Assembly (NCBI GenBank): GCA_965178125.1
Contig: OZ237756.1
Location: 372,001 to 436,000, forward strand
Source: Bilabrum cf. latius
Lineage: Eukaryota
Length of the DNA stretch: 64,000 nt
Reading direction: 5' to 3'
Under the pieces are notes generated by a model that worked only from the letters and a program-made list of their open reading frames with translations, did no database searches and had not been told where the DNA came from. How positions within the stretch are numbered: position 1 is the first letter of the stretch; every line of letters begins with the position of its first letter. A program made the position numbers and the translations under genes. Positions 17,792 through 51,986 of the stretch are shown one piece after another.

Positions 17792-17825
<34 letters not shown>

Positions 17826-25969: not shown

Positions 25970-27545
25970 TCACGAGACACCCTTCACACTCCCCCCACCC
26001 ACGCCGTAGATCGCTCGCCTCCGCACCTCCCTCGCAAGCGACCGACGCACTAGCACGCCGCACTCATCGTGTCCATTCGCCATCGCTGCCTCCATCGCGT
26101 CCTGCATCACCCCGCCCACATCCAACTTAAGCTCAGCCCCCCCCGCCATCACACCCAGCCTCAGCCTCCTGGCCAGCTCCAGTGGCCTGCCCTCGGATGC
26201 GGCCCGCCACACCAGCCCCGCATCCCGCCGGGCCTGGCTCGCCACACGGTGACGCAGCAGTGCACCAATGCGCCTGCGCCGGCTGTTGAAGGCCCGCAGC
26301 CGGGGCAGCATGGCAGGGATCGTGTGATCCTTATGATACGTGATATCAGGAGAAATATATTCCCACCAGAAGAACACGATCCGCGGGTTGGCCAGCACAG
26401 CCTCCAGCATTCTGCCGCACTGTCTGGCTGCTTCTTCAGGCTGGCCCCGGAAGTCATTGATGTTCGTTGATCCGATCACGAGCGACCGCAATGCTTGGTT
26501 CTGCCGCACAGCATCACACAGCGGGCCCACTCGGCACGGGGTTGATTTCCGGCCTGCAGTCATGTTGTACCTGAGGATGAGGTGCTGGATGCTGGTGTTC
26601 TCCCTCACAATGCGGGCCCCGCACTCTCCCATCGCATTGTATGGGGCCAAGCCGCATCCCGGCAGAAGGGTCCAGCTCGTTTCCACCTGCACCAACGTGC
26701 TGTTGCTGCTGAGTGCCTCCGTCCATGCCAGCATCGCGTCAAGATCCAAGTTGCATGGACCCAGGTGACAGTACCGAATGCTCCGGTTGCATCGGATGCC
26801 GTCGGCCATGAGACGATTCATCTTGTACAGCTGCTGGATAGCCTCCTGGTCACGGGGCTGCTTGCCGAGCATATCGCGGATCTTCAGCACCTCCAAACTG
26901 CACTGCGAGTCGGCCAGCACTTTCTGGAAGACTTGCACGCAATCCAATGACATCGTTGTCCATCCTTTTAGCTCAAATACTCGAAGCCGGTTCTTGCCGC
27001 CCGCGTGCAGCATGGCAGGTGCCAGGGCCTCCATGCCATCCGCCGTCCAGCTGACGATCTAAAATTGTAAGCACTGCAGATGCGGTGAGTCGTCAATCGT
27101 GTCCATGCATACTGCTGACCGAAGCGCAGATCCCACGCCTGCATCCAAGAGTTTGTGCTCGAGTCCAGGTACTCGCAAGGATCGCAGCCGGATGCCATCC
27201 TCGGCCAGTACCGATGCCAGTTCCTGTATGGCACTACACGGCGACTTTGTAGGCATGCTAACTCTAGATCGCCCTTGCCTGACTGGTCCCACTGCCTTCT
27301 CTACCTGCATGAGTTTCATTGCGTCGTGGAGGGTGTAGGCCTAGGTATAAAGTCTCGTCCAATTGTACAGTCTCTGCGAAAAAGAACAGCGGACAGGTTG
27401 TATGACAAACATAGGCATACCAAGCAATGGGTTAATTCATTTTTGGCTGAAATCAGGTGACTACATGCTGGTCAGAACATACTTGAGAGCGAACGCTGAG
27501 CTTGGCCTGGAAGTACCCGGCCTCCTCCGCGAATTCAGACGACAT
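25970..27545 (-). CDS. LRR (RI-like) protein with ankyrin-like C-terminus, copy 1; exons 27545-27483, 27373-25970
   Basis: LxxLxL-type repeats (LRVFELKG, LEVLKIRD, IRCNRSIRYCHL, LSSNSTLVQV, VRENTSIQHLIL, VRQNQALRSLVI) and ankyrin-like AASEG...AMANGHDECGVLV. Intron position is conserved across paralogues. TAGs at 27341 and 27059. Confidence 0.75.
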
Positions 27546-28399
27546 GCTGGTTCTCCAAGTGCAGTCAGAGAATGTAATCAGTACCTGTATAAGCCACCAG
27601 GTCACAATAAAAGCTGTAGCAAGGCTACCCTGACAAAGTACAGAATAATAAGCCAGCGCGTGACGAGAGTGAGAACCACTCACGGAACCATGCCTGCCAG
27701 TGGATAAAGCTGAATGCCTGCAAAGTTGAAGCGACTCGGAGGTAGTAATTCTTCGTGTCGGTATGCTTTCCAACAGCCTCAGCTCGTGCTCAATTGCACC
27801 GCCACACCGCTCGCCCCAGCCCTCTCCACAAGCCCGTCTCCACCGAGCCTGTTGGCCAACTCGTCCGATGCGGCTCCCACGTCGTCATCAAGCCCAGCCA
27901 CACCGCAACTCTGCAGTGCAATGCACTCCAAGAAGCACTCCCGCTGGTCACCTCCATCGCCCCTCTCGTCATCAGCACCCCCATTACCCTTGCTGTTGCC
28001 ATTCGTGCCCCCTCCAGACCATGGAGTGCCTTGGGTGCTTCCCCTTGCTGTTGCCGTTCGCGCCCCCTCAAGACCATGGAGTGCTTCGGACCCAAAAAGA
28101 CGGCAATCACAGGGGCAGGGACAGGCGTAGGGGCAGAGACAGGTGTAGTGGCAAGCATAGGCCTCTATCCCTGCCTCCCGTAGCCTGTGCCCAGGGACAG
28201 GAGCTGGGTGCCTGCCTCACCATCAAAGCCAGATGCAGTAGCTGCGGTGGCCTGCCCGCAGGAACTGCTGCCGGAGGGATGGAGGGCAGACATGGGCACT
28301 CGAAGGAGGGTGATGTGCGAGCGTGCTGCTGCGAACATGAAGAGAGTGAAGCCCACGGAATCGTTCATTTCATCTGCGGGACATAAGCTTGTCTCCGGT

Positions 28400-28551
28400 G
28401 GGTGCAGTGCAGTGCAGTGCAGGGAGGCACGGCGGAGAGCCCGGTCTACCTGCGGCTGTCGGACGCGTGGGTGCAGTGCAGGGAGGCACGGCGGAGAGCC
28501 CGGTCTACCTGCGGCTGTCGGACGGGTGGGTGCAGTGCAGGGAAGCACGGT
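28400..28551. repeat. 59-bp minisatellite, about 2.5 units
   Basis: Unit gggtgcagtgcagggaggcacggcggagagcccggtctacctgcggctgtcggacgggt. Confidence 0.9.
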
Positions 28552-29784
28552 GGATTGCTCTGCAATGCCGGATTGGGCCAGCAAGCGCGGATTGGAGACC
28601 AGTGGATTCGCCGGAGGATTAGAGCGGCGGCCACGACCTTACCGTGCGCTGGAAGAGTTTCATCCAGAGCTCACTACGACTTGCAGGCCCTGCAGGTCAG
28701 CAGGTGCAGCCCCTATTTGAAATCTGGGCGGGGGGATCGTGTCGTGGCAAGTTGCGTGTAAATTGAGTTTTATTTTGCGATCGAAGGTGAACCGTATGCC
28801 TTGCACCGCCCGCGCATTGCTGCGGGTGCAATCTACATGGATGACTATTTGATATCTGGGAAGAGCAGTGTACCTTCTGTATTGATTGCACGCCAGCTGG
28901 CATGCAATTCATGGAGAGCACCGCAACTCGTTGTTCGCGACAACCACACCCTTGGGCTGAAGATGCTTCGTACGTCGCGCCACAGGGACCTGTATGTAGG
29001 CTTTGATTGTGTGCGAAATGGCATGCCATGGTCGACAGCTCTGGACTGGCGCTTTAGTAGACTGCAGGATGTAGTTGCACTTAGGCTCAGTCGCGCTTCT
29101 CGCGCTGTTTACAGTCCCTTTTCCACATATGCTTACCTTGACATATCATGTACAGTGTGCAAATGACCGCTGCTTAGCCCTGACAGTTGAAGAGTTTTCC
29201 TTGATGGCTAAGTGATGCGAGACGAGGCAACGAAGCGGTAGCATCTAGAGCAGTAGAGGCCATACTCTGCCATAGGACTTCTGCAGTACATGCAAACGGC
29301 CACTGGGCGTCAATTGGGTTTGATTACCACGTAATCGGCCGGATGTCAAGGATTTAGCTAGCAAGCAAAGGTCAAGCAACAGCCGCAATACAATTCGCGA
29401 GCGCAGCAGCTTTCAGCTGGCAGCGCTACTGACCATTAAACCAGTACCTAAGTAACGGTTGAGCAGGTACGGCTTGGTAAACCTCAATTTTGACGTCTGA
29501 AAGCTCGCGATCTGGGACGACTGCAGCAACACTGAGGCCGTTTCTGCCCTGATCCGGCGCCACTCAGGGTCATCGGTCTAGTTCTCGACGAATATGTGCG
29601 ACCGATTGTGCAGCCTGGTTGCTAGGCGAAGCTCCACCTGCCAGTAGGCATAATGCGCTGTAGATTTGCTGAGATTTTGCATCGCGGTCGCTTGTCGGTT
29701 GCTGGTGCTTGCGAGCGAAGCTTCCATGGGATTCGCTCTCGCATTTCGAGCGGTAGATTCGCCGTCCATTCTTGAACACCAGGC

Positions 29785-32700
29785 ATGCGCACGGTTGCAG
29801 CCGCTTGCATCATGGCTATATGCATGGGCTCTTCCATTGCCAAATCGGGTGCTTTGAAGGAAGGCAGCTCGAGAGTGTACCGAAAGACCGGCGCAAACCA
29901 AGCGGTTATGCGAGCCAGAGGTGAGGCAGAACGGCAGCACTATCGCAAGCCGCTGGCACCTATTTGAAGCTTTGTATGCCAGCTCATTTGGAATTCAAGC
30001 TGTCGCTCCTTATTCTCCGTGGTGTCTCCTCCGCAGACTCGAACGACCCATCGCCTGAATCGGCCGGAGGGTCCGCTGGCTCCACCGGTGGGGCCGATCC
30101 TGAGCCTGAGAGAGACGCTAGTCCGGGCCACCAGTGCAAGCACATGATCTTTCATGTGAATGCATTTGAATGGGACAAGGCAGGAGACCTGATATCATCT
30201 GCTATGCTCGCAGATCCGAAGATGGTCGCCGAGGAGCTCGCCGCAGCCTCTCGCCAGCTTGCAGAGGACATCAAGGAGGCCCGGGTGAAGCCATCGCCGG
30301 AGGAACCTTCTACAGACAGGCTTCCGGCGGATACAAATGACACTGTCGATGCGCAGAAGCAAAATACGAGTCTCAAGGTGCCGCAGAAAGGCGCGACGAA
30401 CGACGCTCCCGGAGGGGATGCATACCAAGGTGCGCCGGCCGGCTCTGTCCCCAAGAGGCCTCTAGACCTGGACCCGGTCGCATTGGATGAAGCCGGGGCT
30501 GGTCTGGTCCGCTTCAGCGAGGCCACCAGGCCAGAGGACCCCTCCTCCTCCTCCTCGAGCCCAGCCAGCAGCGGGGTGCAGGGGTGCGTCGACAAGGCGG
30601 CTGGCAAGCTGGCCCGGGGGGAGGCGAAAGAGGTCCGGGCTGCGATCGAGTCTGCATGCCAGGTGCAGGCAGGCATCGATGCGTTCATCGAGGGCCGCAC
30701 ATCCGGCGGCGGGACTCCACTGACGGTTGGGATCGGCATGGCCGTGGCAGCCGAGGCCCAGCGAGCGGCTGCCGTGTCCATGGGCCTGCATCTGGCGAAT
30801 CTCCTGGGTGCCGAGATGCCATTCCAGTACCACCTGAGCATTGGCGGGTACAGGCCGAGCGAGAACACTCCCCATGGCCTCCCTCCCTCCTTCAGCCAGG
30901 CGCTTCTCACGGAGCTGGGGGGTCTTGCCTCCGAGCCGGGAGCATCATCGCCGCACTCTTCGGTTGATCATACGGTGGATCATCTCATGGCTTCGCTTAC
31001 GGCGCTTGGCGAGAAATGCGCAAATGATGAAGTCCTGATTCCTCATCCCGCTGTGATCGGCATGTCTGCATGCACGACCGATGAGGTGGTTCAAGCGCTG
31101 GTTGCAACCGGTGCCATCGGCGACTCCGGATACTACGAGGACCCGGCCGTGCAGCTGGCTGGCGATCTTTCCAACCTGAGGGGCAGTCAGTAGTTTGGGG
31201 GTGACACGCATCACACATCGATGCCCTACGTGACAGAAGACCACGGGCAGCTCATCCCGCCGGCCAACTCCAGCCTGCTTCACCTGGAGGCATCGTCAGG
31301 GGCTGGCAGCCGGCAGGGCCCGCTACTGCACGGTGTTGGCGAGCCCCCAGCTGCAGGTGGTCATGCAGGGGACAGCGGCGAGGAGGGTGGTGGCGTTGGT
31401 GCAGGTGCTTCTTCTGCGAGCATTGGGGGCGCTGGGGGTGCTTCTTCTGGGGCAGGTGGTCCAGAAGCGGCACAAGAAGCTGCTGGCGGTGACAGCATTG
31501 ACATGGCTGGCCTTCCCGTGGAGAGGACCGATCGGCACCAGGTCGTGTTTGTTCTAGACACGGGTGTGCACCGTCGCTACTCTGGGTTTCAGTCCGAAGG
31601 TGCATTCGACTGGGTCGAGAAGGCCTTGTTTCAGGCCACGGGCGGGTATCCGGACGACCCGCCAACGAGCAGAGTATCGATGGGTGTGTCCATGCGGAAT
31701 CCCGATGGGACAGAGAGAAATGACGCGTCCTTGCCTGTTTCGTTGGATTGGCATGGTACCACGGTCGCAAAGGAGGCGTGCGGCGGGCCGGGGATGCGGT
31801 CGATCATCGTGCCGGTGCGAGTCATCAGCATGCCGTGGAACGAGGACCATGGTGGTTTGCCAACCGAAGAGGAGCGCCAACTCGTCGCTGACCTCAGTGA
31901 ATCAGGAAGCCCCGACCCTGGCAGTGAGCCGGTCCGCGCCGAGGATGGTGCAGCTCCCAAGCAGCAGCAGCGCGCATCATTCGCTGGCTGGGGACTGGCT
32001 GCGATAGTGCACATGGCTCAGAATGTACGGCTGACGATCCGACGATCCATGGGCGCCTCTTTCCGTGATGGGGCCGTCCTAGGGGTGGTGAACATGGCCA
32101 TAATTAACTGGGATGGAGACAAGCAGGAGTTCTGGTTCAGAACCAAGAGGCCTCCCATCAGCGAGGCCAAGATGATAAGGATCTCAGAGGAGCTCAATCA
32201 TTTCTCCGATGTGCTGCGCAACCTGGGCTTCCTGCTTGTGGCTGCGGCTGGCAATTTTCACATGAATGCCGCAGACTCCTACCCGTGCAATGCCAAAGGT
32301 GTGATTTGCGTGGGATCCCATGCTGTACAGGACACGGTGGGAGAGGTGCGCATGTCCGATTTTTCTCACTACGGTACTCAGGTAGACATATTCGCCTAGG
32401 GTGAGGGTATTGTACAGGTCAATCTAACGACGTTCAAAGATTGCGATAAGCTCATTCAGGGCACATCATTTTCGGCGCCTCGTGTGACAAGATCGCTGAT
32501 CACCATGGCCGGTACGCTGCGGATCGTCGACGTGACCAAGGCTCTCCATCTGTTACAAGCCAACAACAAGGATGTGGTGCTGGCGATTGCAGCGTCCACC
32601 CCTTGGGGTATCGGTGAGGAATGGCTGGAGGCATAGCTCGCAGATACCATGGCAGGTCGGGAGCACTAGAGATTGGTGATGAGGGACATGGCATCGACCG

Positions 32701-33731
32701 ACCTTGAATCGTGGAAAGTACCGCGTGCGGATCTTCTTCCAGCCATCTGCGACCCCAGTGAGGTTGCGTGTGACCCTGTGTTGCGTGTCTATCGATGTGG
32801 CTGCTTCGAAATTTTAAGTTCGACAGACAACACATGCGTTGCGTCGCCCCGATCCCCCGGTGTGCACGTTGGAATGCAGCGTGACGGCCTACGAGAGCTA
32901 GCCGGTTCTGGTAGCGCGGAATGTTCTGAATCATCTTGCCGCATTACGAACAGCCTCACTCTTCAGGGCATGCATGGGGATGTTAGCGCAGTAGGTTCGT
33001 TGCTTCGGATCGATGCAGACATCTCTGGCATTGGGCGTGATCCTGAGAATGAAGCCAAAGCTGATGCGGCTGGCGACAAGACTGGTGGGGCTAGTGCTTC
33101 CGACAAGACTGGTGGGGCTAGTGCTGCCGACAAGACTGGAGGGGCTAGTGCTGTTGACAAGACTGGTGGGGCTAGTGCTGGCGACCAGGCCGCCAAGGAG
33201 GCCGCTGCTGATCCTGCGGAAGGCCACATTATGCCAGCTGAAGTCCCGTTTAAGGATTTCGTGTTCCCTAGTCGAGTCAAGTGCGACGCAATCGCAGGTT
33301 CACGGCGCCCCCATGCATTCATTAAGCTGTCTGGCATGTGTTTCGACGACACTGGTGGTGCTAACGAAGGGATCGAGGAAACCGACGTGCTGGTCGATGT
33401 CCTGGATGGCTGTCCGTGGACGCTGTATTCGAATACGATGGGCCGATTTGCGGTGCTTGCTAGACGTGTGTCGCGCTGCGGTACCGAGGCTGTGGCAAAG
33501 CCGATCTACGTCACAGCGTATTTGGACCCACATGGCGCTGGTGGGCAGTCCCGGGCACAATCTTGCCAACCCATGGCTGGTGAGACCGAGTCAGAGGAGC
33601 CGCTCCAATGGCATGTCGGAGTCACGGTGAAAGAGCCCTCCCTGTACGTGCATGTACATGCTAATAAGGATGCGGGTCTCGAGGATGTACCACTCAGGGT
33701 AGACGTATCGGTTCGGTATCCAGACTGGTGA
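29785..33731 (+). CDS. Secreted subtilisin-like (S8) serine protease, copy 1; exons 29785-29920, 30037-33731
   Basis: Signal peptide MRTVAAACIMAICMGSSIA. Catalytic motifs FVLDTGV (Asp), WHGTTVA (His), VAAAGN (oxyanion Asn) and GTSFSAPRV (Ser). The Ser motif is reached only by reading TAG 32397-32399. Other TAGs at 31191, 32634 and 32667. Ends TGA. Confidence 0.85.
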
Positions 33732-33949
33732 AACCTCGAAATCAAGTCAATCTGCCGGATCCTGGGACACCTGGACGTACTCGGAGATCAGGACTGTAGC
33801 CACGGGGACCGGGGATGACGAGGAGGTGTAGAACATTGTGGGGACACCGGCACAGGCGACGATCCGGATAGTGCGGTGCAGGGACGCTTGTCATTTCGGG
33901 CTGCATACTAGGCTAACCATGAGTATAGGTTTTAATCTTCTTCTTGAAA

Positions 33950-35459
33950 GTTCAACACGCAAGACCTGACAAAGCTGTGCCTGTGCGCGACCCTTGACCG
34001 GACTGACCGGTGCTGGGAAGAGCACGTGCACTACTCCGCCGAGGAGGAGGGGGTTGGGAGGGTGGGCAAAAATTACCCAATCTCCGCCCCTCTCCTGAAC
34101 ACAAAGAGGGTATGCGCGTCATCGCAAGCAATCCGTTGGCTTGGTCGCACCTTCCCGGTCGCAACTGCCATCGGAACCCAACGAGACATTCACGCGCTCC
34201 CACTCTGGCATCAACACCGAACCCCATACGGCGTTAGGATCAAGGAATCTGCTGTTCTATCGCGTATAAATACCTACCGCCGGATGGAGTTCGTGTTTGA
34301 TGCGACGATGGGAGCGCAGGAAGGAATGTCCCCCAGTTTGTTCCGGTATAGGATCGGTCGCAACCGGTGGTCGACGCGCCCCGGATATACGTGGACCGTA
34401 CAGAGTTGATGGATCTGTGGCATACGAAATCGTTATCTACCCTGCCGGGTACAGTTGCTGAGAAAGACGGCGACGGTGATGGTGTGGGCTGGCCCTCCGC
34501 CAGCACCACCACAGGGCGGCCGCCCTCGGCCCGCCCTCACCTCCACCCATCATGTCGTCGAAGGGAACGTGAGCTCCCTACCGGCAGGTATCAATTCAAT
34601 CAGTACCAACCAAACAAAAAATACTACCATATGCGGTGTGCTGAGTCCCCTAGTCCCGAATCCTCTTCATCGCCCCTGGCGTGAATGGGTGGTGCTCCAC
34701 TTGTGGTCGCACCCCCTCTGTTCAGCTCACGGGTGGGTGGGTCAACTTTAGCTACAACGTCCGTTGTGCGCCTCGTGCACTAGGTATCAGTTACCTTGTG
34801 CCGCAGATTTATATCTTTTGCGCTAATTTTTGCGCGTGCTCCCAAAAGGGTGCCAGATTCCAGGGCCACTCTCCACGGTCCGATCAAACCGGAACTCTCC
34901 GCGCGCTCCGACTCCCAATTTGAAACATTGCAGCTCTCTCTGTGCTCAGGAGAGGGACGGAGTTTGGGTTAATTCGTTATGCGTGCTCCGTTGCTACTGC
35001 CAGCTCGGTGAGGCTGAAGCGGCGCACGGCCACTCCATCCGCATCGCTGCAGTGATGTGCCTGGACCGAGCAGGCGTCGCCTTCGAGACTATCAGGCGAT
35101 TCGGGCGGTGGAAGTCAGCTTCTTCGTGTGAGGTATACCTACGTTCAGCCAGAGAGGGCCTTCCCCCTCTTGAGCTCCGTGGGTCAGACCTCTAGTTGAA
35201 GCTGCCAGCATGGGTGCTGGCGCGCGCCCTTCGCATGTTTGGCGATCATGCTGCTGCGGTGCAGCCGCCGCCTGTTCCGTGTAAGCTGGCTTCCGGTTTG
35301 GCTCAATGGCACCCCACTGAGCTCAAGCATGCAAGGAGAACTTTGCCGCTCGGTAGATACGTAGTTACGCAAGTTGGAGGACGACGCATCCGTGCTCGGC
35401 AAGATCGACGTTGGTGTCGAGGGCGTACCGTTGGCAGCAGGGGAAGAGCATGGTGGTGA
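33950..35459 (+). mobile_element. Degenerate tyrosine-recombinase element (DIRS/Ngaro-like remnant); boundaries uncertain
   Basis: About 35020-35150 encodes HGHSIRIAAV...IRRFGRWKSASSCEVYLRS, the HxxR/GRW/Y C-terminal YR catalytic motifs. The ORF reads through TAG 35193 to TGA 35457-35459. Upstream SSQAIRWLG is weakly RT-thumb-like. Confidence 0.55.
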
Positions 35460-36069: not shown

Positions 36070-36992
36070 GCGCCTGCACGACGCGAAGCACACCCGCCCA
36101 AGCCCGCCAGGCTGACTTCCACAGCAAGGCAGCCACTGGCAGTCGTACACAAGCGCCATCCGGACCAAGCCAGGCTCAAGTCTATCTACTAGACGACGCG
36201 AAGCATACCCGCCCAGGCTCGCCAGGCTGACGTCCACAGCAAGGCGGCCACTGGCAGGCGCACACAAGCGCCATCCAGTTCAAGCAAAGCTCAAGTCTAC
36301 CTCCACGAGACGACACGACGCGACCCGCCCAGGCTCGCCAGGCTGACGTCCACAGCAAGGCGGCCGCTGGCAGGCGCACACAATCGCCATCCAGATCAAG
36401 CAAAGCTCAAGTCTATCCGCGAGACGACGCGACGCACACCCGCCCAGGCGCGCCAGGCTGACTTCCACAGCAAGGCGGCCACTGGCAGGCGCACACACGT
36501 GCCATCCAGACCAAGCAAGCTCAAGTCTACCCACGAGACGACGCGAAGCGACCCGCCCAGGTGCGCCAGGCTGACGTCCACAGCAAGGTGGCCGCTGGCA
36601 GGCGCACAACAGTGCCATCCAGACCAAGCAAGCTCAAGTGTATCCGCGAGACGACATGACGCACACCCGCCCAGGCCCGCCAGGCTGACGTCAACAGCAA
36701 GGCGGCCACTGGCAGGCGCACACAATCGCCATCCAGATCAAGCAAGCTCAAGTCTACCCACGAGACGACGCGAAGCGACCCGCCCAGGCGCGCCAGGCTG
36801 ACGTCCACAGCAAGGCGGCCACTGGCAGGCGCACACATGCGCCATCCAGATGAAGCAAGCTCAAGTCTATCCACGAGACGACGCGAAGCGACCCGCCCAG
36901 GCGCGCCAGGCTGACGTCCACAGCAAGGCGGCCACTGGCAGGCGCACACACGCGCCATCCAGATCAAGCAAGCTCAAGTCTATCCACGAGAC
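36070..36992. repeat. About 114-bp tandem repeat, about 8 diverged units
   Basis: The anchor ctcaagt recurs at about 36175, 36290, 36406, 36520, 36633, 36747, 36860 and 36973. Confidence 0.9.
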
Positions 36993-37038
36993 CATGCGAA
37001 CGACACCTGCACGAGCGTCAGCGAGACAGAGCATACGA

Positions 37039-37769
37039 ACTGCTCGCACCAGCTGCCGACCCTGCACCACCTCGTGCTCTGCTCGCACCAGCTGCCACGG
37101 CTGCACCATCTCGTGCTCTGCTCGCACCCGCTGCCGAGTCTGCACCACCTCGTGCTCTGCTCGCACCAGCTGCCGAGTCTGCACCACCTCGTGCTCTGCT
37201 CGCACCAGCTGCCGAGTCTGCACCACCTCGTGCTCTGCTCGCACCAGCTGCCGCGGCTGCACCATCTCGTGCTCTGCTCGCACCAGCTGCCGAGTCTGCA
37301 CCACCTCGTGCTCTGCTCGCACCAGCTGCCGAGTCTGCACCACCTCGTGCTCTGCTCGCACCAGCTGCCGCGGCTGCACCATCTCGTGCTCTGCTCGCAC
37401 CAGCTGCCACGGCTGCACCATCTCGTGCTCTGCTCGCACCCGCTGCCGAGTCTGCACCACCTCGTGCTCTGCTCGCACCCGCTGCCGAGTCTGCACCACC
37501 TCGTGCTCTGCTCGCACCAGCTGCCGAGTCTGCACCACCTCGTGCTCTGCTCGCACCAGCTGCCACGGCTGCACCATCTCGTGCTCTGCTCGCACCAGCT
37601 GCCGAGTCTGCACCACCTCGTGCTCTGCTCGCACCAGCTGCCGAGTCTGCACCACCTCGAGCTCTGCTCGCTCCCGCTGCCGAGTCTGCACCACCTCGTG
37701 CTCTGCTCGCACCAGCTGCCGCGGCTGCACCACCTCGTGCTCTGCTCGCACCAGCTGCCGAGTCTGCAC
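37039..37769. repeat. 39-bp minisatellite, about 19 units
   Basis: Unit ctgctcgcaccagctgccgagtctgcaccacctcgtgct, with variants. Confidence 0.92.
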
Positions 37770-40507: not shown

Positions 40508-42046
40508 TCACGAGACACCCTTCACACTCCCCCCACCCACGCCGTAGATCGCTCGCCTCCGCACCTCCCTTGCCAGCGACCGACGCACTAGCACGCCGCA
40601 CTCCTCGTGTCCATTCGCCATCGCTGCCTCCATCGCGTCCTGCATCACCCCGCCCACATCCACCTTAAGCTCAGCCCCCCCCGCCATCACACCAAGCCTC
40701 AGCCTCCTGGCCAGCTCCAGAGGCCTGCCCTCGGATGCGGCCCGCCACACCAGCCCCGCATCCCGCCGGGCCTGGCTCGCCACACGGTGATGCAGCAATG
40801 CATCGATGCGCCTGTGACGGCTGTTGAAGGCCCGCAGCCGGGGCAGCATGGCAGGGATGGTGTGATCCTTGTGAAACGTGATATCAGGAGAAATATATTC
40901 CCACCAGAAGAACACGATCCGCGGGTTGGACAGCACTGCCTCCAGCATTCTGCCGCACTGTCTGGCTGCCTCTTCAGGCTGGCCCCGGAAGTCATTGATG
41001 TTCGTTGATCCGATCACGAGTGACTGCAATGCTTGGTTCTGCCGCACAGCATCACACAGCGGGCCCACTCGGCACGGGGTTGATTTCCGGCCTGTAGTCA
41101 TGTTGTACCTGAGGGTGAGGTGCTGTATGCTGGTGTTCTCCCTCACAATGCGGGCCCCGCACTCTCCCATCGCATTGTGTGGAGCCAAGCCGGATTCCGG
41201 CAGAAGGGTCCAGCTCGTTTCCACCTGCACCAACGTGCTGTTGCTGCTGAGTGCCTCTGTCCATGCCAGCATCGCGTCAAGATCCAAGTTGCATGGACCC
41301 AGGTGACAGTACCGAATGCTCCGGTTGCATCGGATGCCGTCGGCCATGAGACGATTCATCTTGTACAGCTGCTGGATAGCCTCCTGGTCACGGGGCTGCT
41401 TGCCGAGCATATCGCGGATCTTCAGCACCTCCAAACTGCACTGCGAGTCGGCCAGCACTTTCTGGAAGACTTGCACGCAATCCAATGACATCGTTGTCCA
41501 TCCTTGCAGCACCAGGACTCGAAGGCGGTTCTTGCCGCCTGCGTGCAGCATGGCAGGTGCCAGGGCAGCCATGCCATCCGCCGTCCAACCGACAACCTAA
41601 AACAGTAAGCACTGCAGATGCGGTAAGCCGTCAATTGTATCCATGCATACTGCTGACCGAAGCGCAGATCCCACGCTTGCATCCAAGTGTTTGTGTTCGA
41701 CTTCAGGTACTCGCAAGGATCGCAGCCGGACGCCATCCTCGGCCAGTACCGACGCCACTTCCTGTATGGCCATCTATGACGATTTCGTAGGCATGGTGAT
41801 CTGTACTCGCCCTTGCCTGATTGCTTCCACTGCCTTGTCCAGCTGCTTCGGGTATCTTGTATAATCTAGGAGCTTGTTTGGTCCCTGCGTAGAAGAGCAG
41901 CGGCCAGGTTCCTAGACGAAAGCTGTGCTAACCAATACATGCGGAAATTCAGTGATTTATACTACATGTGGCTCGAAACATACTAGAAAGTGTAAGTCGA
42001 GGTTGGGCTGGAAGTACCCGGCCTTCTTCGCGAATCCAAACGACAT
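40508..42046 (-). CDS. LRR/ankyrin-like protein, copy 2
   Basis: Paralogue of 25970..27545 with the same 21-codon first exon and intron position. TAGs at 41774 and 41597. Ends TGA. Confidence 0.75.
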
Positions 42047-42289
42047 GCTGGTTCTTCGATTGCAGGCTTTCTGGAGTCAGTAACTTCTATCAGCACCTAT
42101 ACAAGCCACCAGGTCACAATACGTATTGCAGTCAGGCCACCTTAACCCAAATGCAATGAACAGAACGAACAAATGAACGAGCAAACAAACAAACGAATCT
42201 TGATTTTCGAGCAATCATCACACTCAGAATGAACAAGCCAGCGCATGACGAGAGTGAGAACCACTTACAGAGACCGGAGGAACTTCTTG

Positions 42290-42560: not shown

Positions 42561-42877
42561 AGCAGTACTCTGCGGCCATGTGATGGGAATAAGCAACACG
42601 AGGCCAGCCTTGTGATAACCCGACACGCTTTTTTGACTCAGGCAGCAATGCCTCGAAATGCACACAGCCAAGCATATGCCCGCAGCATGGTGGCCTAAGC
42701 ACCAGCGGGCGATGCGCCGAAGTGGTCAGCTCCGCCAGCACCCACATTCACAGGCGCACTGATCGCACGATCCAGTGGATAACCAGGGTGCGAGAACACA
42801 CACTAGAGGCAATGCCAGTGGCATCGTAACGGCATCATTGCCAATGACACAACACCTCCTTATCACATCTGCCTCGG

Positions 42878-44453
42878 TCACGAGACACCCTTCACTCTCC
42901 CCCCACCCACGCCGTAGATCGTTCGCCTCCGCACCTCCCTCGCAAGCGACCGACGCACTAGCACACCGCACTCATCGTGTCCATTTGCCATCGCTGCCTC
43001 CATCGCGTCCTGCATCACCCCGCCCACATCCACCTTAAGCTCAGCCCCGCCTGCCATCACACCCAGCCTCAGCCTCCTGGCCAGCTCCAGAGGCCTGCCC
43101 TCGGATGCGGCCCGCCACACCAGCCCCGCATCCCGCCGGGCCTGGCTCGCCACACGGTGATGCAGCAATGCATCGATGCGCCTGCGACGGCTGTTGTAGG
43201 CCCGCAGCCGGGGCAGCATGGCAGGGATCGTGTGATCCTTGTGAAACGTGATATCAGGAGATATATATTCCCACCAGAAGAACACGATCCGTGGGTTGGA
43301 CAGCACTGCCTCCAGCATTCTGCCGCACTGTCTGGCTGCCTCTTCAGGCTGGCCCCGGAAGTCATGAATGTTCGTTGATCCGATCACGAGTGACCGCAAT
43401 GCTTGGTTCTGCCGCACAGCATCACACAGCGGGCCTACTCGACACGGGGTTGATTTCCGGCCTGTAGTCATGTTGTACCTGAGGATGAGGTGCTGTATGC
43501 TGGTGTTCTCCCTCACAATGCGGGCCCCGCACTCTCCCATCGCATTGTGTGGGGCCAAGCCGCATCCCGGCAGAAGGGTCCAGCTCGTTTCCACTTGCAC
43601 CAACGAGCTGTTGCTGCTGAGTGCCTCTGTCCATGCCAGCATCGCGTCAAGATCCAAGTTGCACGGACCCAGGTGACAGTACCGAATGCTCCGGTTACAT
43701 CGGATGCCGTCGGCCATGAGACGATTCATCTTGTACAGCTGCTGGATAGCCTCCTGGTCACGGGGCTGCTCGCCGAGCATATCGTCGAGGTTCAGCACCT
43801 CCAAACTGCACTGCGAGTCGGCCAGCACTTTCTGGAAGACTTGCACGCAATCCAATGACATCGTTATCCAACCTTTTAGCTCAAAGACTCGAAGCCGGTT
43901 CTTGCCGCCCGCGTGCAGCATGGCAGGTGCCAGGGCAGCCATGCCATCCGCCGTCCAGCTGACGATCTGAAATTGTAAGCACTGCAGATGCGGTGAGTCG
44001 TCAATCGTGTCCATGCATACTGCTGACCGAAGCGCAGATCCCACGCCTGCATCCAAGAGTTTGTGCTCCAGTCCAGGTACTCGCAAGGATCGCAGCCGGA
44101 CGCCATCCTCGGCCAGTACCGATGCCAGTTCCTGTACGGCACTACACGGCGACTTTGTAGGCATGCTAACTCTAGATCGCCCTTTCCTGACTGGTTCCAC
44201 TGCCTTCTCTACCTGCATGAGTTTCATTGCGTCGTGGAGGGTGTAGGCCTAGGTATAAAGTCTCGTCCAATTGTACAGTCTCTGCGAAAAAGAACAGCGG
44301 ACAGGTTGCAAGACAAACATAGGCATACCAAGCAATGGGTTAATTCAATTTTGGCTGAAATCAGGTGACTACATGCTGGTCAGAACATACTTGAGAGCGA
44401 ACGCTGAGCTTGGCCTGGAAGTACCCGGCCTCCTCCGCGAATTCAGACGACAT
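42878..44453 (-). CDS. LRR/ankyrin-like protein, copy 3
   Basis: Near-identical to copy 1. Has CAG at 43967-43969 where copies 1, 2 and 5 have TAG. Ends TGA. Confidence 0.78.
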
Positions 44454-45299
44454 GCTGGTTCTCCAAGTGCAGTCAGAGAATGTAATCAGTACCTGTATAA
44501 GCCACCAGGTCACAATAAAAGCTGTAGCAAGGCTACCCTGACAAAGTACAGAATAATAAGCCAGCGCGTGACGAGAGTGAGAACCACTCACGGAAGCATG
44601 CCTGGATAAAGCTGAATGCCTGCAAAGTTGAAGCGACTCAGAGGTAGTAATTCTTCGTGTCGCTATGCCAACAGCTCCAGCTCGTGCTCACTTGCACCGC
44701 CACACCGCTCGCCCCAGCCCTCTCCACAAGCCCGTCTCCACCGAGCCTGCTGGCCAGCCCATCGTCCGATGCCGCTCCCACGTCGTCATCCAGCCCGGCC
44801 ACACAGCAACTCTGCAGTGCAATGCACTCCAAGAAGCACTCCCGCTGGTCACCTCCATCGCCCCTCTCGTCATCAGCACCCCCATTCCCCTTGCTGTTGC
44901 CATTCGTGCCCGCTCCAGACCATGGAGTGCCTTGGGTGCTTCCCCTTGCTGTTGCCGTTCGCGCCCCCTCAAGACCATGGAGTGCTTCGGACCCTGAAAG
45001 ACGGCAATCACAGGGGCAGGGACAGGCGTAGGGGCAGAGACAGGTGTAGTGGCAAGCATAGGCCTCTATCCCTGCCTCCCGTAGCCTGTGCCCAGGGACA
45101 GGAGCTGGGTGCCTGCCTCACCATCAAAGCCAGATGCAGTAGCTGCGGTGGCCTGCCCGCAGGAACTGCTGCCGGAGGGATGGAGGGCAGACATGGGCAC
45201 TCGAAGGAGGGTGATGTGCGAGCGTGCTGCTGCGAACATGAAGAGGGTGAAGCCCACGGAATCGTTCATTTCATCTGCGGGACATAAGCTTGTCTCCGG

Positions 45300-46494
45300 T
45301 GGGTGCAGTGCAGTGCAGTGCAGGGTGGCACGGCGGAGAGCCCGGTCTACCTGCGGCTGTCGGACGGGTGGGTGCAGTGCAGGGAGGCACGGCGGAGAGC
45401 CCGGTCTACCTGCGGCTGTCGGACGGGTGGGTGCAGTGCGGGGAGGCACGGCGGAGAGCCCGGTCTACCTGCGGCTGTCGGACGGGTGGGTGCAGTGCAG
45501 GGAAGCACGGCGGAGAGCCCGGTCTACCTGCGGCTGTCGGACGGGTGGGTGCAGTGCAGGGAGGCACGGCGGAGAGCCCGGTCTACCTGCGGCTGTCGGA
45601 CGGGTGGGTGCAGTGCGGGGAGGCACGGCGGAGAGCCCGGTCTACCTGCGGCTGTCGGACGGGTGGGTGCAGTGCAGGGTGGCACGGCGGAGAGCCCGGT
45701 CTACCTGCGGCTGTCGGACGGGTGGGTGCAGTGCAGGGAAGCACGGCGGAGAGCCCGGTCTACCTGCGGCTGTCGGACGGGTGGGTGCAGTGCAGGGAGG
45801 CACGGCGGAGAGCCCGGTCTACCTGCGGCTGTCGGACGGGTGGGTGCAGTGCAGGGAAGCACGGCGGAGAGCCCGGTCTACCTGCGGCTGTCGGACGGGT
45901 GGGTGCAGTGCAGGGAGGCACGGCGGAGAGCCCGGTCTACCTGCGGCTGTCGGACGGGTGGGTGCAGTGCAGGGTGGCACGGCGGAGAGCCCGGTCTACC
46001 TGCGGCTGTCGGACCGGTGGGTGCAGTGCAGGGAGGCACGGCGGAGAGCCCGGTCTACCTGCGGCTGTCGGACGGGTGGGTGCAGTGCAGGGAAGCACGG
46101 CGGAGAGCCCGGTCTACCTGCGGCTGTCGGACCGGTGGGTGCAGTGCAGGGAGGCACGGCGGAGAGCCCGGTCTACCTGCGGCTGTCGGACCGGTGGGTG
46201 CAGTGCAGGGAAGCACGGCGGAGAGCCCGGTCTACCTGCGGCTGTCGGACGGGTGGGTGCAGTGCAGGGTGGCACGGCGGAGAGCCCGGTCTACCTGCGG
46301 CTGTCGGACGGGTGGGTGCAGTGCAGGGTGGCACGGCGGAGAGCCCGGTCTACCTGCGGCTGTCGGACGGGTGGGTGCAGTGCAGGGAAGCACGGCGGAG
46401 AGCCCGGTCTACCTGCGGCTGTCGGACGGGTGGGTGCAGTGCAGGGTGGTACGGCGGAGAGCCCGGTCTACCTGCGGCTGTCGGACGGGTGGGT
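45300..46494. repeat. 59-bp minisatellite, about 20 units
   Basis: Same unit as 28400-28551; the pattern shifts 1 nt per 60-nt line. Confidence 0.95.
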
Positions 46495-47853
46495 ACAGGA
46501 CGAGAGGTATAGGACAGCTTCGTGACTCATCCAAGGTTGATTTGTTTGTGAATTGCTGGTCTCAATGCTGCTCGCAGCAATGTTTGCAACTACTTCAGGG
46601 AGCGGGGCGGGGCCGCAGGTGGTTGCTCTGCAATGCCGCAGTGGGCCAGCAAGCACGGATTGGAGACCAGTGGATTCGCCGGAGGATTAGAGCGGCGGCC
46701 ACGACCTTACCGTGCGTTGGAAGGCGTTCATCCAGAGCTCACTACGACTTGTAGGCCCTGTAGGTCAGCAGGTGCAGCCCCTATTTGAAATCTGGGCGGG
46801 GGGATCGTGTCGTGGCAAGTTGCGTGTAAATTGAGTCTTATTTTGCGATCGAAGGTGAACCGTATGCCTTGCACCGCCCGCGCATTGCTGCGGGTGCAAT
46901 CTACATGGATGACAATTTGATATCTGGGAAGAGCAGTGTGCCTACTGTATTGATTGCACGCCAGCTGGCATGCAATTCATGGAGAGCACCGCAACTCGTT
47001 GTTCGCGACAACCACACCCCTTGGGCTGAAGATGCTTCGTTCGTCGCGCCACAGGGACCTGTATGGAGGCTTTGATTGTGTGCGAAATGGCATGCCATGG
47101 TCGACAGCTCTGGACTGGCGCTGTAGTAGACTGCAGGATGTAGTTGCACTTAGGCTCAGTCGCGCTTCTCGCGCTGTTTACAATCCCTTTTCCACATATG
47201 CTTACCTTGGCATATCATGTACAGTGGACAAATGACCGCTGCCTAGCCCTGTCAGTTGAAGAGTTTTCGTTGATGGCTAAGTGATGCGAGACGAGGAAAT
47301 GAAGCGGTAGCATCTCGTACAGCAGAGGCCATGCTCTGCCATAGGAACTCTGATGTGCATGCAAACGGCCACTGGACGCCAATTGGGTTTGATTACTACG
47401 TAATCACCGGGATGTCAAGGATTTAGCTAGCCAGCAGAGGCCAAGCAACAGCCGCGATACGATTCGCGAGCGGAGCAGCTTTCAGCTGGCAGCGCTACTG
47501 ACCATTAAACCAGTACCTTAGTAACAGTTGAGCAGGTACGGCTTGGCAAACCTCAATTTTGACGTTTGAAAGCTCGCGATCTGGGACGACTGCAGCAACA
47601 CTGAGGCCGTTTCTGCCATGATCCGGCGCCGCTCAGGGTCATCGGTCTAGTTCTCGGCAAATATGTGCGACCGAGCATGCAGCCTGGTTGCTAGGCGAAG
47701 CTCCACCTGCCAGTAAGTGTGGTGCGCTGTAGATTAGCTGTGATTTTGCATCGCGGTCGCTTGTCGGTTGCTTGTGCTTGCGAGCGAAGCTTCCATGGGA
47801 TTCGCTCTCGCATTCCGACCGGTAGATTCGCCGTCCATTCTTGAACACCAGGC

Positions 47854-50800
47854 ATGCGCACGGTTGCAGCCGCTTGCATCCTGGCTATATGCATGGGCTC
47901 TTCCATTGCCAAATCGGGTATTTTGAAGGAAGGCAGCTCGAGAGTGTACCGAAAGACCGGCGCAAACCAAGCGGTTATGCGAGCCAGAGGTGAGGCAGAA
48001 CTGCAGCACTATCGCAAGCCGCTGGCACCTATTTGAAGCTTTGTATGCCAGCTCATTTGGAATTCAAGCTGTCGCTCCTTATTCTCCGTGGTGTCTCCTC
48101 CGCAGACCCGAACGACCCATCGCCTGAATCGGCCGGAGGGTCCGCTGGCTCCACCGGTGGGGCCGATCCCGAGCCTGAGAGAGACGCTAGTCCGGGCCAC
48201 CAGTGCAAGCACATGATCTTTCATGTGAATGCGTTTGAATGGGACAGGGCAGGAGAGCTGATATCATCTGCTATGCTCGCAGATCCGAAGATGGTCGCCG
48301 AGGAGCTCGCCGCAGCCTCTCGCCAGCTTGCAGAGGACATCAAGGAGGCCCGGGTGAAGCCATCGCCGGAGGAACCTTCTACAGACACACTGCAGGACAT
48401 CAAGGAGGCCCGGGTCAAGCCATCGCCGGAGGAACCTTCTACAGATACACTGCAGGACATCAAGGAGGCCCGGGTGAAGCCATCGCCGGAGGAACAAACT
48501 ACAGACACGCTTCAGGCGGATAAAATTGACGCTGTCGATACGCCGAAGCAAGAAACGAGTCTCAAGGGGCCAAAGCAAGGCGCGTCGAGCGACGCTACCG
48601 GAGGGGATGCAGTCCAAGGTGCGCCGGCCGACTCTGCCCCCAAGATGCCTCTAGACTTGGACCCGGTCGCATCGGATGGATATGGGGCAAGTCTGGTCCG
48701 CTTCAGCGAGGCCGCCAGGCCAGAGGACTCCTCCTCCTCCTCCTCCACCTCCACCTCCTCCTCCTCCTCCTCGAGCCCAGCCAGCAGCCGGGTGCAGCGG
48801 TGCGTCGTCAAGGCGGCTGGCAAGCTGGCCCGGGGGGAGGAGAAAGAGGTCCGGGCTGCGATCGAGTCTGCATGCCAGGTGCAGGCAGGCATCGATGCGT
48901 TCATCGAGGGCCGCACATCCGGCGGCGGGACTCCACTGACGGTTGGGATTGGCATGGCCGTGGCAGCAGAGGCCTAGCGAGCGGCTGCCGTGTCCATGGG
49001 CCTGCATCTGGCGAGTCTCCCGGGTGCCGAGATGCCATTCCAATACCACCTGAGCATTGGCGGGTACAGGCCGAGCGAGAACACTGCCCATGGCCTCCCT
49101 CCCTCCTTCAGCCAGGCCCTTCTCACGGAGCTGGGGGGTCTTGCCTCCGAGCCGGGAGCATCGTCGCCGCACTCTTCGGAGGATCGTACGGTGGATCATC
49201 TCATGGCTTCGCTTACGGCGCTTGGCGAGAAATGCGCAAATGATGAAGTCCTGATTCCTCAGCCCGCTGTGATCGGCATGTCTGCATGCACGACCGATGA
49301 GTTGGCTCAAGCGCTGGTTGCAACCGGTGCCATCGGCGACTCCGGATACTACGAGGACCCGGCCGTACAGCTGGCTGGCGATCTACCCAACCTGAGGGGC
49401 AGTCAGTAGTTTGGGGGTGACACGCATCACCCATCGATGCCCTTCGTGACAGGAGCCCACGGGCAGCTCATCCCGCCGGCCAACTCCAGCCTGCTTCACC
49501 TGGAGGCATCGTCAGGGGCTGGCAGCCGGCAGGGCCCGCTACTGCACGGTGTTGGCGAGCCCCCAGCTGCAGCTGATCATACAGGGGGTAGCGGCGAGGA
49601 GGGTGATGGCGTTGGTGCAGGTGCTGCTTCTGCGAGCATGGGGGGCTCTGGGGGTGCTGCTTCTGGGGCGGGGGCCTCAGACGATGTCGTTGACATGGCT
49701 GGCCTTCCCGTGGAGGGGACCGATCGGCACCAAGTCGTGTTTGTTTTAGATTCTGGTGTGCACCGTCGCTACTCTGGGTTTCAGTCCGAAGGTGCATTCG
49801 ACTGGGTAGAGAAGGCTTTGTTTCAGGCCACGGGCGGGCATCCGGACGACCCGCCAACGAGCAGAGTATCGATGGGTTTGTCCATGCGGAATCCCGATGG
49901 CGGAAAGAGAATTGACGCATCCTTGCCTCCTAATGAAAATGACTGGCATGGTACCACGGTTGCAAATGAGGCATGCGGCGGGCCGGGGATGCGGTCGATC
50001 ATCGTGCCAGTGCGAGTCATTGGTGCGGCATGGGATAAACCGGGCATAAACCATGGTGGTTTGCCGAGTAACGAAGCGCGCCAACTCGTCGCTGACCTCA
50101 GTGAATCAGGAAGCCCCAACCCTGGCAGTGAGTTGGTCTACGCCGAGGATGGTTCGGCTACTCATCAGCAGCGCGCATCATTCGCTGGCTGGGGACTGGC
50201 TGCGATAGTGCACATGGCTCAGGATGTGCGGCTGACGATCCGACGATCCATGGGCGCCTCTTTCCGTGATGGGGCCGTCCTAGGGGTGGTGAATATGGCC
50301 ATTACGAACTGGGACGGAAGAAAGCAGGCGGTCGGAACCAAGAGGCCTCCCATCAGCGAGGCCAAGATGACCAGGATTGCAGAGGAGCTCGATCACTTCT
50401 CCGATGTGCTGCACAAATTGGGCTTCCTGCTTGTGGCTGCAGCTGGCAATGAGCACATGAATGCCGCCGACTCCTACCCTTGCAATGCCAAGGGTGTGAT
50501 TTGCGTGGGATCCCACGCTGGTTCAGTACCGGATGCTTTTGAACAATCTGCTGCATCCCATGCTGGCCGAGCAGCAGAGCCTGTTGTGCGCATGTCCGGG
50601 TTTTCTCACTACGGCCGTGCTGTCGATATATTCGCCTAGGGTGAGGGGATCAATAAAGTCGATTTTGAGACACTCGCCTAGGGACGTGAAACCACGCGGG
50701 GCACGTCATTCGCGGCGCCTCGTGTGACCAGATCGCTGATCACCATGGCCGGCACGCTGCGGATCGTCGACGCGACCAAGGCTCTCCGTCTGTTGCAAGC

Positions 50801-51986
50801 CAACAACGAGAATGTGAAGCTGGCGATAGCAGCATCCGCCCCTTGGGGTGTTCGTGAGGGATGGCTAGGGCCACAGCTCGAGGATACTATCTACGGTCGG
50901 GAGCACTAGAGATTGGTGATGAGGGACATGGCCTCGACCGACCTTGAATCGTGGAAAGTACCGCGTGCGGATCTGCTCCCAGCCCTATGCGACCCCAGTG
51001 AAGATGCGTGTGACCCGGTGCTGCTTACATACCGGTGTGGCTGCTTCGATAGAATTGAGTCAGACGGTAGCGAGTGCATATCTACGAGTCGATATCCCGG
51101 TGTGCATGTCGCGATACATCAGGCTGCCGGCGGTGGCCCTTACCAGCTGAAAGATGAGCTACGCGAAACTATTTGTAAAGATGCGAGTTGTAGCACAAAG
51201 ACTAGGCTGGTTGGTCGCGCAGAGCCAGGTGGCGAGCGTGTATTTGGTTCGCTTCTTCGTATCGATGCAGATATATCTGGCATCAGGCGTGATCGTGATC
51301 ATGAAGCCGGGGTCGCCGCAGCTGCTAGAGCCAGTAGCGACGAGGCGGAGGCAAGGGCAGGCAGCAAGGGTGAGAAGACGAGTACTGGCGACGATGGTGC
51401 TGGGGCTAGTGCTGGTGTCAAATCTGTTGGGGCTAGTGCGGGTGACGTGGCCGGTGGTGCTGCTGGCTCTGTCGACAGAGACAGCGTGCCGGCAGAAGAT
51501 ACCTCCCGGAATGAGGCATTCCCAAGTCGAGTCAAATGCGATGCACCCGCAGATCCAGGGCTCTCATTTGCATTATTCACGCTTTCTGGCATGTGTTTCG
51601 CCTCTGATCCGGCCGATGCTGAAGCAGAGATCGAGGAAACCGACGTGCTGATCGATGTCCTGGATGGCTGTCCGTGGACGCTGTATTCGAATACCATGGG
51701 CCGATTTGCGGTGCTTGCTAGACATGTGCCACGCTGCGGTACCGAGGCTGTGGTAAAGCCGATCCAAATCATGGTGTTTTTGGGCCCGCGTGGCGCTGGT
51801 GGGCAGCCCCGGGCACAATCGTGCCAACCCATGGCTGGTAAGACCGAGTCAGAGGAGCCGCTCCAATGGCACGTCGGGGTCACGGTGAAAGAGCCCTCCC
51901 TATACGTGCATGTACATGCTAAGGGTGAGGGTCTCGAGGGTGTACCACTCAGAGTAGATGTATCGGTTCGGTTTCGAGATGAGTGA
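47854..51986 (+). CDS. Secreted subtilisin-like (S8) serine protease, copy 2; exons 47854-47989, 48106-51986
   Basis: Motifs FVLDSGV, WHGTTVA, VAAAGN and GTSFAAPRV. TAGs at 48975, 49407, 50637, 50679 and 50907. Ends TGA. Same intron as copy 1. Confidence 0.85.

Follow-up and report, generated by a model that had tools for sequence, protein, structure and literature searches.

Reading frames of contig OZ237756.1 (assembly GCA_965178125.1, Bilabrum cf. latius) carry the codon TAG at many internal sites in the 64 kb between positions 372,001 and 436,000 of the forward strand, the whole of which was analysed and is referred to here as the window, and this raises the question of whether UAG has become a sense codon in the organism or whether the genes concerned are decaying. 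An initial annotation, made from the sequence alone, had proposed that TAG and CAG interchange like synonymous codons between recent paralogues, namely the members of a leucine-rich repeat (LRR)-like gene family and a pair of S8 proteases (subtilases), as well as between two repeats of a DMT transporter. We are highly confident that cytoplasmic translation reads UAG as glutamine, that UGA and UAA terminate, and that toggling between TAG and CAG was silent after gene duplication. The proposed synonymy of the two codons is supported, and the case rests on tests that go beyond the swaps themselves: insertions and deletions (indels) that keep the frame, the ratio of non-synonymous to synonymous substitution rates (dN/dS), the absence of new TGA and TAA codons, conserved glutamines and a spliced contig that bears TAGs.

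TAG and CAG in duplicated genes

Self-BLAST of the window revealed a segmental duplication of about 8 kb, each copy of which holds one LRR-like gene and one subtilase gene (A and P1 in copy 1, C and P2 in copy 2; Table 1). The corresponding segments are 96.0% identical between 25904-28554 and 42811-45455, 95.5% between 28545-30318 and 46615-48387, 89.3% between 30265-32325 and 48454-50520 and 85.7% between 33264-33765 and 51519-52020, and the remaining LRR-like copies are located at 40.5, 52.3 and 57.6 kb. The codons put forward in the initial annotation were confirmed in both families. In the LRR-like genes the minus strand reads CTA (that is, TAG) at 27059, 58733 and 41597 and CTG (CAG) at 43967, all in one alignment column, and in the proteases, on the plus strand, CAG at 30759 stands opposite TAG at 48975 and TAG at 32634 opposite CAG at 50874, again in matching columns. 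Three more TAGs, which had gone unremarked, are common to both protease copies (31191/49407, 32397/50637 and 32667/50907). The DMT example holds only in part: the motifs V-CAG-AGVN (CAG at 24197-24199) and V-TAG-SAVN (TAG at 23615-23617) are both real, on the minus strand, but they fall outside the region for which the interchange had been claimed and belong to two ancient halves of one DMT_YdcZ gene rather than to recent paralogues.

Although the swaps are real, they are weak evidence when taken alone and are compatible with CAG>TAG nonsense decay, which they do not argue against because TAG is the commonest new stop codon in neutral simulation and because a two-copy family gives no direction. 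Both states are indeed seen in the proteases, as the claim of exchange in both directions implied, but the pair lends no polarity to the changes. When the codons opposite TAG were tabulated from codon alignments, the reliably aligned parts yielded seven variable TAG columns, three of them opposite CAG, as the proposed synonymy would have it, and four opposite codons for other residues (TGT/TCG, TGG, TTG/GTG and GAT). Columns 1-83 of the LRR-like alignment, where the gene start is uncertain and the alignment poor, were left out of these counts and hold two more TAG columns (50 and 73). Synonymous partners were found for 7 of 33 CAG, 4 of 14 CAA and 3 of 9 TAG codons in the paralogue alignments, and the mix of partners of TAG resembles that of ordinary glutamine codons in these fast-evolving genes.

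The protease pair is 86% identical over the frame and all 15 indels within it are multiples of three, six of them lying past the last TAG; of the five indels in the intergenic flanks, three have other lengths. The frame therefore stays unbroken downstream of the TAGs, and dN/dS there is not near one, frameshifts and such a ratio being the two signs of decay that the initial annotation had named. The segment bounded by the second and third TAG columns (columns 459-879) has a ratio of 0.485 and the one after the last (columns 970-1337) a ratio of 0.523, and the same alignment read in two shifted frames gave control values of 1.05 and 0.95. Synonymous divergence exceeds non-synonymous divergence in these two long downstream segments (Fisher P = 1e-4 and 9e-6) and in everything downstream of the first TAG (Fisher P = 1.7e-9). 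Upstream of the first TAG, dN/dS is 1.46, with few changes (P = 0.47), and is due to a hypervariable patch. Constraint on the protease is not relaxed downstream of TAGs and, if anything, the reverse is true.

Neutral simulation at the observed divergence (1000 replicates) predicted 2.95 new TGA and 2.6 new TAA codons in the protease pair, where none was observed (P = 0.004), and gave a probability of 0.07 of finding no TGA or TAA for each of the LRR-like pairs A/E and B/E. Unshared new TAGs in the protease pair numbered three, against 5.8 expected. These counts, together with frames that are open and constrained, indicate that TGA and TAA were purged by selection while TAG was tolerated.

Divergence along the protease pair is uneven. 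The coding regions (29964-33731 and 48033-51986) are 86% identical, and the flanks (27428-29963 and 44336-48032) are closer, at 94.7% and 97.9%. Synonymous divergence, which is 0.02 at the 5' end, increases along the pair and reaches 0.85 near columns 1051-1200, and columns 151-300 show 31 non-synonymous and four synonymous changes (dN/dS 2.8). The pattern suggests that a family of secreted proteases has undergone mosaic gene conversion as well as diversifying selection.

In the LRR-like family, the column within the motif CLQF-Q-IVSW is TAG in copies A (27059-27061), B and D and CAG in copies C and E (53420). Given the copy tree (E,(B,(A,(C,D)))), in which A+C+D has a support of 98 and C+D one of 61, this distribution implies at least two changes at the column. 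Conflicting 2:2 site patterns among the copies (9, 3 and 11 sites) point to gene conversion, so that the route of these changes cannot be fixed; whichever route was taken, both TAG and CAG persist in open, constrained genes. On the 3' side of the column dN/dS is 0.20-0.47 in all 10 pairs, as compared with 1.05-1.26 in shifted frames, and here too the relaxation of constraint that would signal decay was not found.

Homologous residues, gene ends and sequencing runs

Eleven TAG sites could be aligned to homologues and seven of these lie opposite glutamine, all in conserved motifs. In the aromatic amino-acid hydroxylase (PAH) the TAG occupies the glutamine of ST-Q-YIRH, which is present in all eight aligned homologues, including ones that are 98% and 88% identical, and in three of three among the PDB alignments listed. 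The JMJD5-like protein has a TAG at HQDP-Q-QN (glutamine in four of four among the alignments listed), and the reverse transcriptase at the glutamines of Q-G-x-x-LSP (four of four alignments) and D-Q-x-GF (three of four). In the branched-chain aminotransferase (BCAT) the sites fall in the motifs D-Q-EW and DI-Q-YG, and in the DMT_YdcZ transporter in LPV-Q-x-A-x-N (three of three homologues). Each half of the transporter carries a V-Q-x-x-x-N motif whose glutamine, invariant in the aligned homologues, is encoded by CAG in one half and by TAG in the other; the second half gave no tblastn match in plasmids. No residue other than glutamine recurs opposite TAG at the 11 sites. The histidine phosphatase (HisPhos) protein, with six TAGs, was without a match among PDB sequences.

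Catalytic parts lie downstream of TAGs in PRMT5, the hydroxylase, the S8 protease and BCAT. The protease P1 presents the motifs VLDTG, WHGT, AAAGN and GTSFSAP at residues 551, 617, 781 and 854, in that order, which fits the Asp/His/Ser succession of subtilases, and we take these to be catalytic motifs, with WHGT providing the histidine and GTSFSAP the serine. The Peptidase_S8 profile (PF00082) matches the catalytic region with E = 1.8e-14; the whole open reading frame (ORF) was without a match at E <= 0.001. The shared TAG at 32397/50637 (residue 833, VDIFA-Q-GEGI) sits between the histidine and serine motifs and, since it precedes the latter, the product under the standard code would lack the catalytic serine.

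The 18 ORFs examined contain 12,214 codons, among them 50 TAG, 341 CAG and 110 CAA. TGA and TAA are absent in frame, although the two zeros arise partly by construction, the ORFs having been delimited by these codons. TAG thus makes up about 10% of glutamine codons. It occurs at least once in 17 of the 18 ORFs, at positions ranging from the second to the last tenth, and also in BCAT, which has five more in its exon 2. Reading TAG as sense fuses shorter frames into frames of 1255 and 1317 codons for the proteases, 875 for PRMT5 and 751 for JmjC. The longest stop-to-stop frame grows from 647 to 1330 codons with TAG as sense, as compared with 880 when the commoner TGA is treated as sense, and in Markov-shuffled controls the effect on frame length is larger for TGA than for TAG.

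Nineteen gene ends were examined, of which 17 are TGA (16 ORFs and BCAT) and two are TAA. The TGA of PRMT5 coincides with the last residue of its homologues, and the TAA of JmjC lies shortly past the last residues aligned to homologues. UGA and UAA still terminate, which is the TAG-only pattern of NCBI table 15. TAA was considered as a sense codon in the GBP-like gene, where over 150 codons follow the TAA in frame (20005-20661, plus strand) with neither TGA nor TAA among them, and this was rejected, as the extension is rich in Cys, Trp and Arg, overlaps the end of the convergent JmjC gene in antisense and was judged non-coding. At the end of the minus-strand ORF 9829-12255 a TAG directly precedes the TGA (9829-9834); this is the only place in the window where TAG could act as a stop, and if UAG is glutamine it encodes a final glutamine.

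Contigs of four sequencing runs (X2, X5, X6 and X7), out of nine available, were compared with the window. In the single-copy part (15500-25999) contigs of all four runs show no difference from the window, and the 155-nt GT..AG segment on the minus strand that forms the BCAT intron is skipped in contigs of X5, X6 and X7, which represent two studies, and unspliced in X2. One spliced X5 contig of 1342 nt spans the five BCAT TAGs with 0 differences, and other X5 contigs, also with 0 differences, span the six HisPhos, three GBP and five JmjC TAGs, X7 contigs being among those that cover the TAGs of these last three genes without difference. That TAGs are retained unchanged, in the spliced contig among others, speaks against editing and against an intronic position.

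The protease splice joint, at which 29921-30036 is removed, occurs in contigs of X7 and X6 that differ from P1 by about 3% and may derive from a paralogue; with this splicing the coding sequence gains the ATG at 29785, and both protease copies have a hydrophobic N-terminus. For LRR-like copy A the joint 27373>27483 was seen in one contig of X6. Its exon 1 starts with ATG, encodes the peptide MSSEFAEEAGYFQAKLSVRSQ and is in frame with exon 2, and the N-terminus of copy E, MSLGLAEEAEYVQPNL, resembles it. Since exon 1 is in frame, as judged from one low-depth contig and the similarity between paralogues, the coding sequence of copy A would include its two TAGs, at 27341 and 27059. Contigs covering the paralogous parts are short and come from several family copies, and expression is not assignable to a given copy; at position 30759 all four runs have T, which corresponds to the TAG state of P2. 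Summed contig depth in X2 is 296-689 over the LRR-like gene (25989-27222) and about 100-230 over the protease (29691-33392), as compared with about 44 over single-copy genes, and there are probably more copies of both families elsewhere in the genome.

Competing explanations and a possible mechanism

Under the standard code the LRR-like and protease copies would be young pseudogenes, with TAGs produced by CAG>TAG and other nonsense mutations. This draws on CAG being a very common codon one transition away from TAG, on the lead of TAG among new stops in the neutral simulation (5.8 as against 2.95 TGA and 2.6 TAA), on the four of seven variable columns that face codons for other residues, and on the youth of the copies, short stretches of which would show little decay. 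It fits poorly, however, with the total lack of the roughly 5.5 TGA or TAA codons expected in the protease pair (P = 0.004, with 0.07 for LRR-like A/E), with the frame being kept in 15 of 15 protease indels and with a dN/dS of about 0.5 downstream of TAGs (P down to 1.7e-9). Moreover, three TAGs are older than the duplication, yet both copies are open over more than 1200 codons, and TAG occupies invariant glutamine sites in single-copy conserved genes. We consider nonsense decay highly improbable on these grounds, and give as little credence to TAG encoding a different residue (Glu, Leu, Tyr, Lys, Ser or Trp) or being removed by U-to-C editing or splicing. Four alignable sites opposite E, V, M and K, and paralogue partners that include W, L/V, C/S and D, would favour another residue, but the seven of 11 sites opposite glutamine are all in conserved motifs and no alternative residue recurs, while the spliced contig with its five unchanged TAGs speaks against editing and splicing, and TAGs that fall in the middle of conserved motifs are not intronic.

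An ambiguous or leaky UAG, acting as a stop in some contexts, for example near mRNA 3' ends, and as glutamine elsewhere (compare Condylostoma and Blastocrithidia), is unlikely, if less so than the preceding alternatives. The sample of gene ends is only 19 and the TAG-TGA end of the ORF at 9829-12255 is compatible with TAG as a real stop; on the other hand, none of the 19 genes needs TAG as its terminator, PRMT5 and JmjC end at or just past the residues aligned to their homologues, and TAGs are spread along the ORFs up to the last tenth.

Several observations weigh against reading UAG as glutamine, or against parts of that reading. For the role of TAA as a stop there are just two gene ends to go by. 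The four variable columns in which TAG faces codons for other residues become replacements if TAG is glutamine, and one of them is a W>Q change at a tryptophan kept in the four other LRR-like copies. At four of the 11 sites aligned to homologues the opposite residue is E (PRMT5), V and M (BCAT) or K (reverse transcriptase), all at variable positions, that of PRMT5 in a gapped loop. Constraint is weak 5' of the LRR-like TAG column, where dN/dS ranges over 0.35-1.41 and, for the seven pairs that involve B or E and are more diverged, over 0.62-0.86, and the coding status of this 5' part leans partly on one low-depth spliced contig and the conserved exon-1 peptide. The RNA nature of runs X5-X7 is only guessed, X5 being marked 'probably DNA', and X2 is possibly the source data of the window and so not independent. 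In the window, a tRNA scan found no tRNA gene, there was no Rfam family at gathering thresholds and no eRF1 gene, so that eRF1 and the decoding tRNA are unseen.

For UAG read as glutamine, the proposed course of events is that TAG serves as a minor glutamine codon, one C/T transition from the main glutamine codon CAG, and that after duplication of the LRR-like and subtilase genes this transition would have toggled TAG and CAG as a silent change, the remaining changes to or from TAG acting as ordinary replacements. By analogy with other UAG-only lineages, for which the relevant part of one report provides the basis (PMC5304391), decoding would involve a tRNA-Gln whose anticodon is CUA and which probably arose from tRNA-Gln(CUG), together with an eRF1 that recognises UAG less well; that report describes the anticodon CUA as pairing with UAG and not with UAA. 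The mechanism is well shown at the level of the code, while for the tRNA-Gln(CUA) and the eRF1 change we infer it from those lineages.

Gene content, lineage and other UAG codes

The window has a G+C content of about 60% and holds eukaryotic genes, including those for PRMT5, a JmjC/cupin-8 protein, a GBP-like GTPase, HisPhos and a reverse transcriptase; Pfam profile matches add a Biopterin_H hydroxylase, Mis12, the two-halved DMT_YdcZ transporter and the subtilase, and BCAT, on which the initial annotation was silent, is also present. Genes are mostly single long frames with a few short GT..AG introns, and the window represents nuclear DNA from a eukaryote that is rich in GC and poor in introns. 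The features discussed are collected in Table 1.

Table 1. Features of the window, with positions counted from its first nucleotide
Feature	Positions	Strand	Remarks
Duplication copy 1	25904-33765		LRR-like gene A and subtilase gene P1
Duplication copy 2	42811-52020		LRR-like gene C and subtilase gene P2; lengthened by 59-bp minisatellite 45313-46498
LRR-like A	25970-27545	-	Exon 1 27545-27483, GT..AG intron 27482-27374, exon 2 27373-25970; TAGs 27341, 27059; TGA end
LRR-like B	40508-41935	-	TAGs 41597, 41774 (TGT/TCG in other copies), 41912 (poorly aligned 5' part)
LRR-like C	42878-44335	-	CAG 43967; TAG 44249, common to A and D
LRR-like D	57653-59101	-	TAGs 58733, 59015, 57797 (GTG/TTG in other copies)
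LRR-like E	52325-53902	-	Most diverged, ~85% nucleotide identity; CAG 53420; TAG 53321 (TGG in other four)
Subtilase P1	29785-33731	+	Exon 1 29785-29920, GT..AG intron 29921-30036, exon 2 30037-33731; 1276 aa; TGA end; codon alignment: TAG 31191, 32397, 32634, 32667; CAG 30759
Subtilase P2	47854-51986	+	Exon 1 47854-47989, intron 47990-48105, exon 2 48106-51986; 1338 aa; codon alignment: TAG 48975, 49407, 50637, 50679 (GAT in P1), 50907; CAG 50874
PRMT5	1857-4484	-	Single TAG at aa 595, upstream of GAGRGPL methyltransferase motif; TGA end at homologues' end
Aromatic amino-acid hydroxylase (PAH)	4736-5944	-	One TAG, invariant Gln of ST-Q-YIRH; Biopterin_H E = 3e-148
JmjC (JMJD5-like)	20505-22760	-	Five TAGs, one at Gln of H-x-D-P-Q; TAA end
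DMT_YdcZ transporter	22856-24307	-	Two internal halves; PF04657 E = 7e-43 over 2 stretches
BCAT	24445-25836	-	155-nt GT..AG intron ~25560-25715; five in-frame TAGs in exon 2
Non-LTR retroelement reverse transcriptase ORF	61089-63929	-	Six in-frame TAGs, two at Gln positions of RT motifs

The LRR-like proteins form a lineage-specific, multi-copy family. They matched no Pfam family at E <= 0.1, and a search of 5.8 billion clustered proteins found a single distant homologue, 56% identical over 16% of the query. In an AlphaFold2 model (mean pLDDT 63.8) strands and helices alternate, and the best Foldseek matches are the LRR domains of NLRP, NOD2 and ribonuclease inhibitor (E from 2e-5, TM 0.35-0.44). 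The model, which is of medium confidence, resembles NLR/ribonuclease-inhibitor repeats with a helical part at the C-terminal end.

The non-LTR retroelement, with in-frame TAGs that include the two at glutamine positions of its RT motifs, is adapted to the host code. An inverted copy of 60852-61802, comprising the 3' end of the retroelement and adjoining DNA, lies at 54076-55026 (951 bp, 99.7% identical). Arrays of a 59-bp minisatellite adjoin LRR-like copies C and D (45313-46498 and 59835-60546), with 97-98% identity between copies, and further minisatellites occur at 36-37.8 kb, namely a 39-bp array and one of about 115 bp (37040-37769; 36078-37004). Long 'ORFs' listed across minisatellite arrays are repeat artefacts.

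The closest named hydroxylase is that of Cafeteria roenbergensis, at 66% identity. In a hydroxylase tree of 28 rows the window sequence groups with two others (support 100/100) beside the Cafeteria clade (90/87), both lying inside a larger group (100/98) with a labyrinthulean sequence just outside. The organism thus appears, from this one gene tree, to be near the stramenopile Cafeteria, for which the relevant part of a genome report gives a G+C content of about 70% and mentions a non-standard code for the mitochondrion only (10.1101/751586). Full-text literature searches, with most subscription journals outside their reach, found no report of a nuclear code with UAG as glutamine in stramenopiles. 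It is possible, though we put this forward tentatively and at somewhat less than an even chance, that the window represents an independent and unpublished origin of a UAG-only glutamine code in a bigyran stramenopile near Cafeteria, GC-rich and with mostly UGA stops, unlike AT-rich carriers of such codes, and with retrotransposon, secreted-protease and LRR-like families fully adapted to it.

In practical terms, annotation with the standard code would disrupt some three quarters of the window's genes, and active enzymes would be mistaken for fragments or pseudogenes. The analysis also illustrates that a change of code can be established from paralogues without databases, provided that, besides swaps, the evidence takes in frame-keeping indels, dN/dS on the far side of the codon and a lack of the other two stops. 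Cases in which the meanings of UAG and UAA are split are few, to judge from the pertinent parts of two reports (PMC5304391; PMC11687900), and each new independent one tests a tRNA(CUA) together with an eRF1 change as a general route. A case that is GC-rich and terminates mainly at UGA would bring in another mutational background, and its interest would be higher if both the stramenopile placement and the absence of a prior description hold.

A UAG-only glutamine code is known in a few other eukaryotes, and the window provides a further case, for whose apparent lineage the literature searches brought up no report of it. The sections consulted of one report present Iotanema spirale, with UAG as glutamine, and a rhizarian, with UAG as leucine, as the first UAG-only codes (PMC5304391), and another describes UAG as glutamine with UAA as a stop in two phyllopharyngean ciliate lineages and Protocruzia tuzeti (PMC11687900). 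As in Iotanema, the phyllopharyngeans and Protocruzia, UAG is glutamine here, UAA and UGA are stops and TAG is a minority glutamine codon along gene bodies (PMC5304391; PMC11687900), but the lineage, on its one gene tree, is near Cafeteria and is neither fornicate nor ciliate. The window sequence shows neither the tRNA nor eRF1. Stop usage also differs: TGA ends 17 of 19 genes in this window of about 60% G+C, whereas UAA is given as the primary stop of Iotanema (PMC5304391) and ends 93.5-100% of C-terminal alignments in the UAG-glutamine ciliates, according to the figures drawn on here (PMC11687900). Systems in which UAR (UAA and UAG) encodes glutamine include hexamitin diplomonads, many ciliates, ulvophycean algae, oxymonads and Amoeboaphelidium, as enumerated in the relevant part of one report (PMC5304391). 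The organism studied here shares with them UAG as glutamine, presumably by way of a tRNA-Gln derived from tRNA-Gln(CUG). Unlike in those systems, the reading frames, of about 12,600 codons, contain no TAA and two genes terminate at this codon, and UAG and UAA are therefore decoupled.

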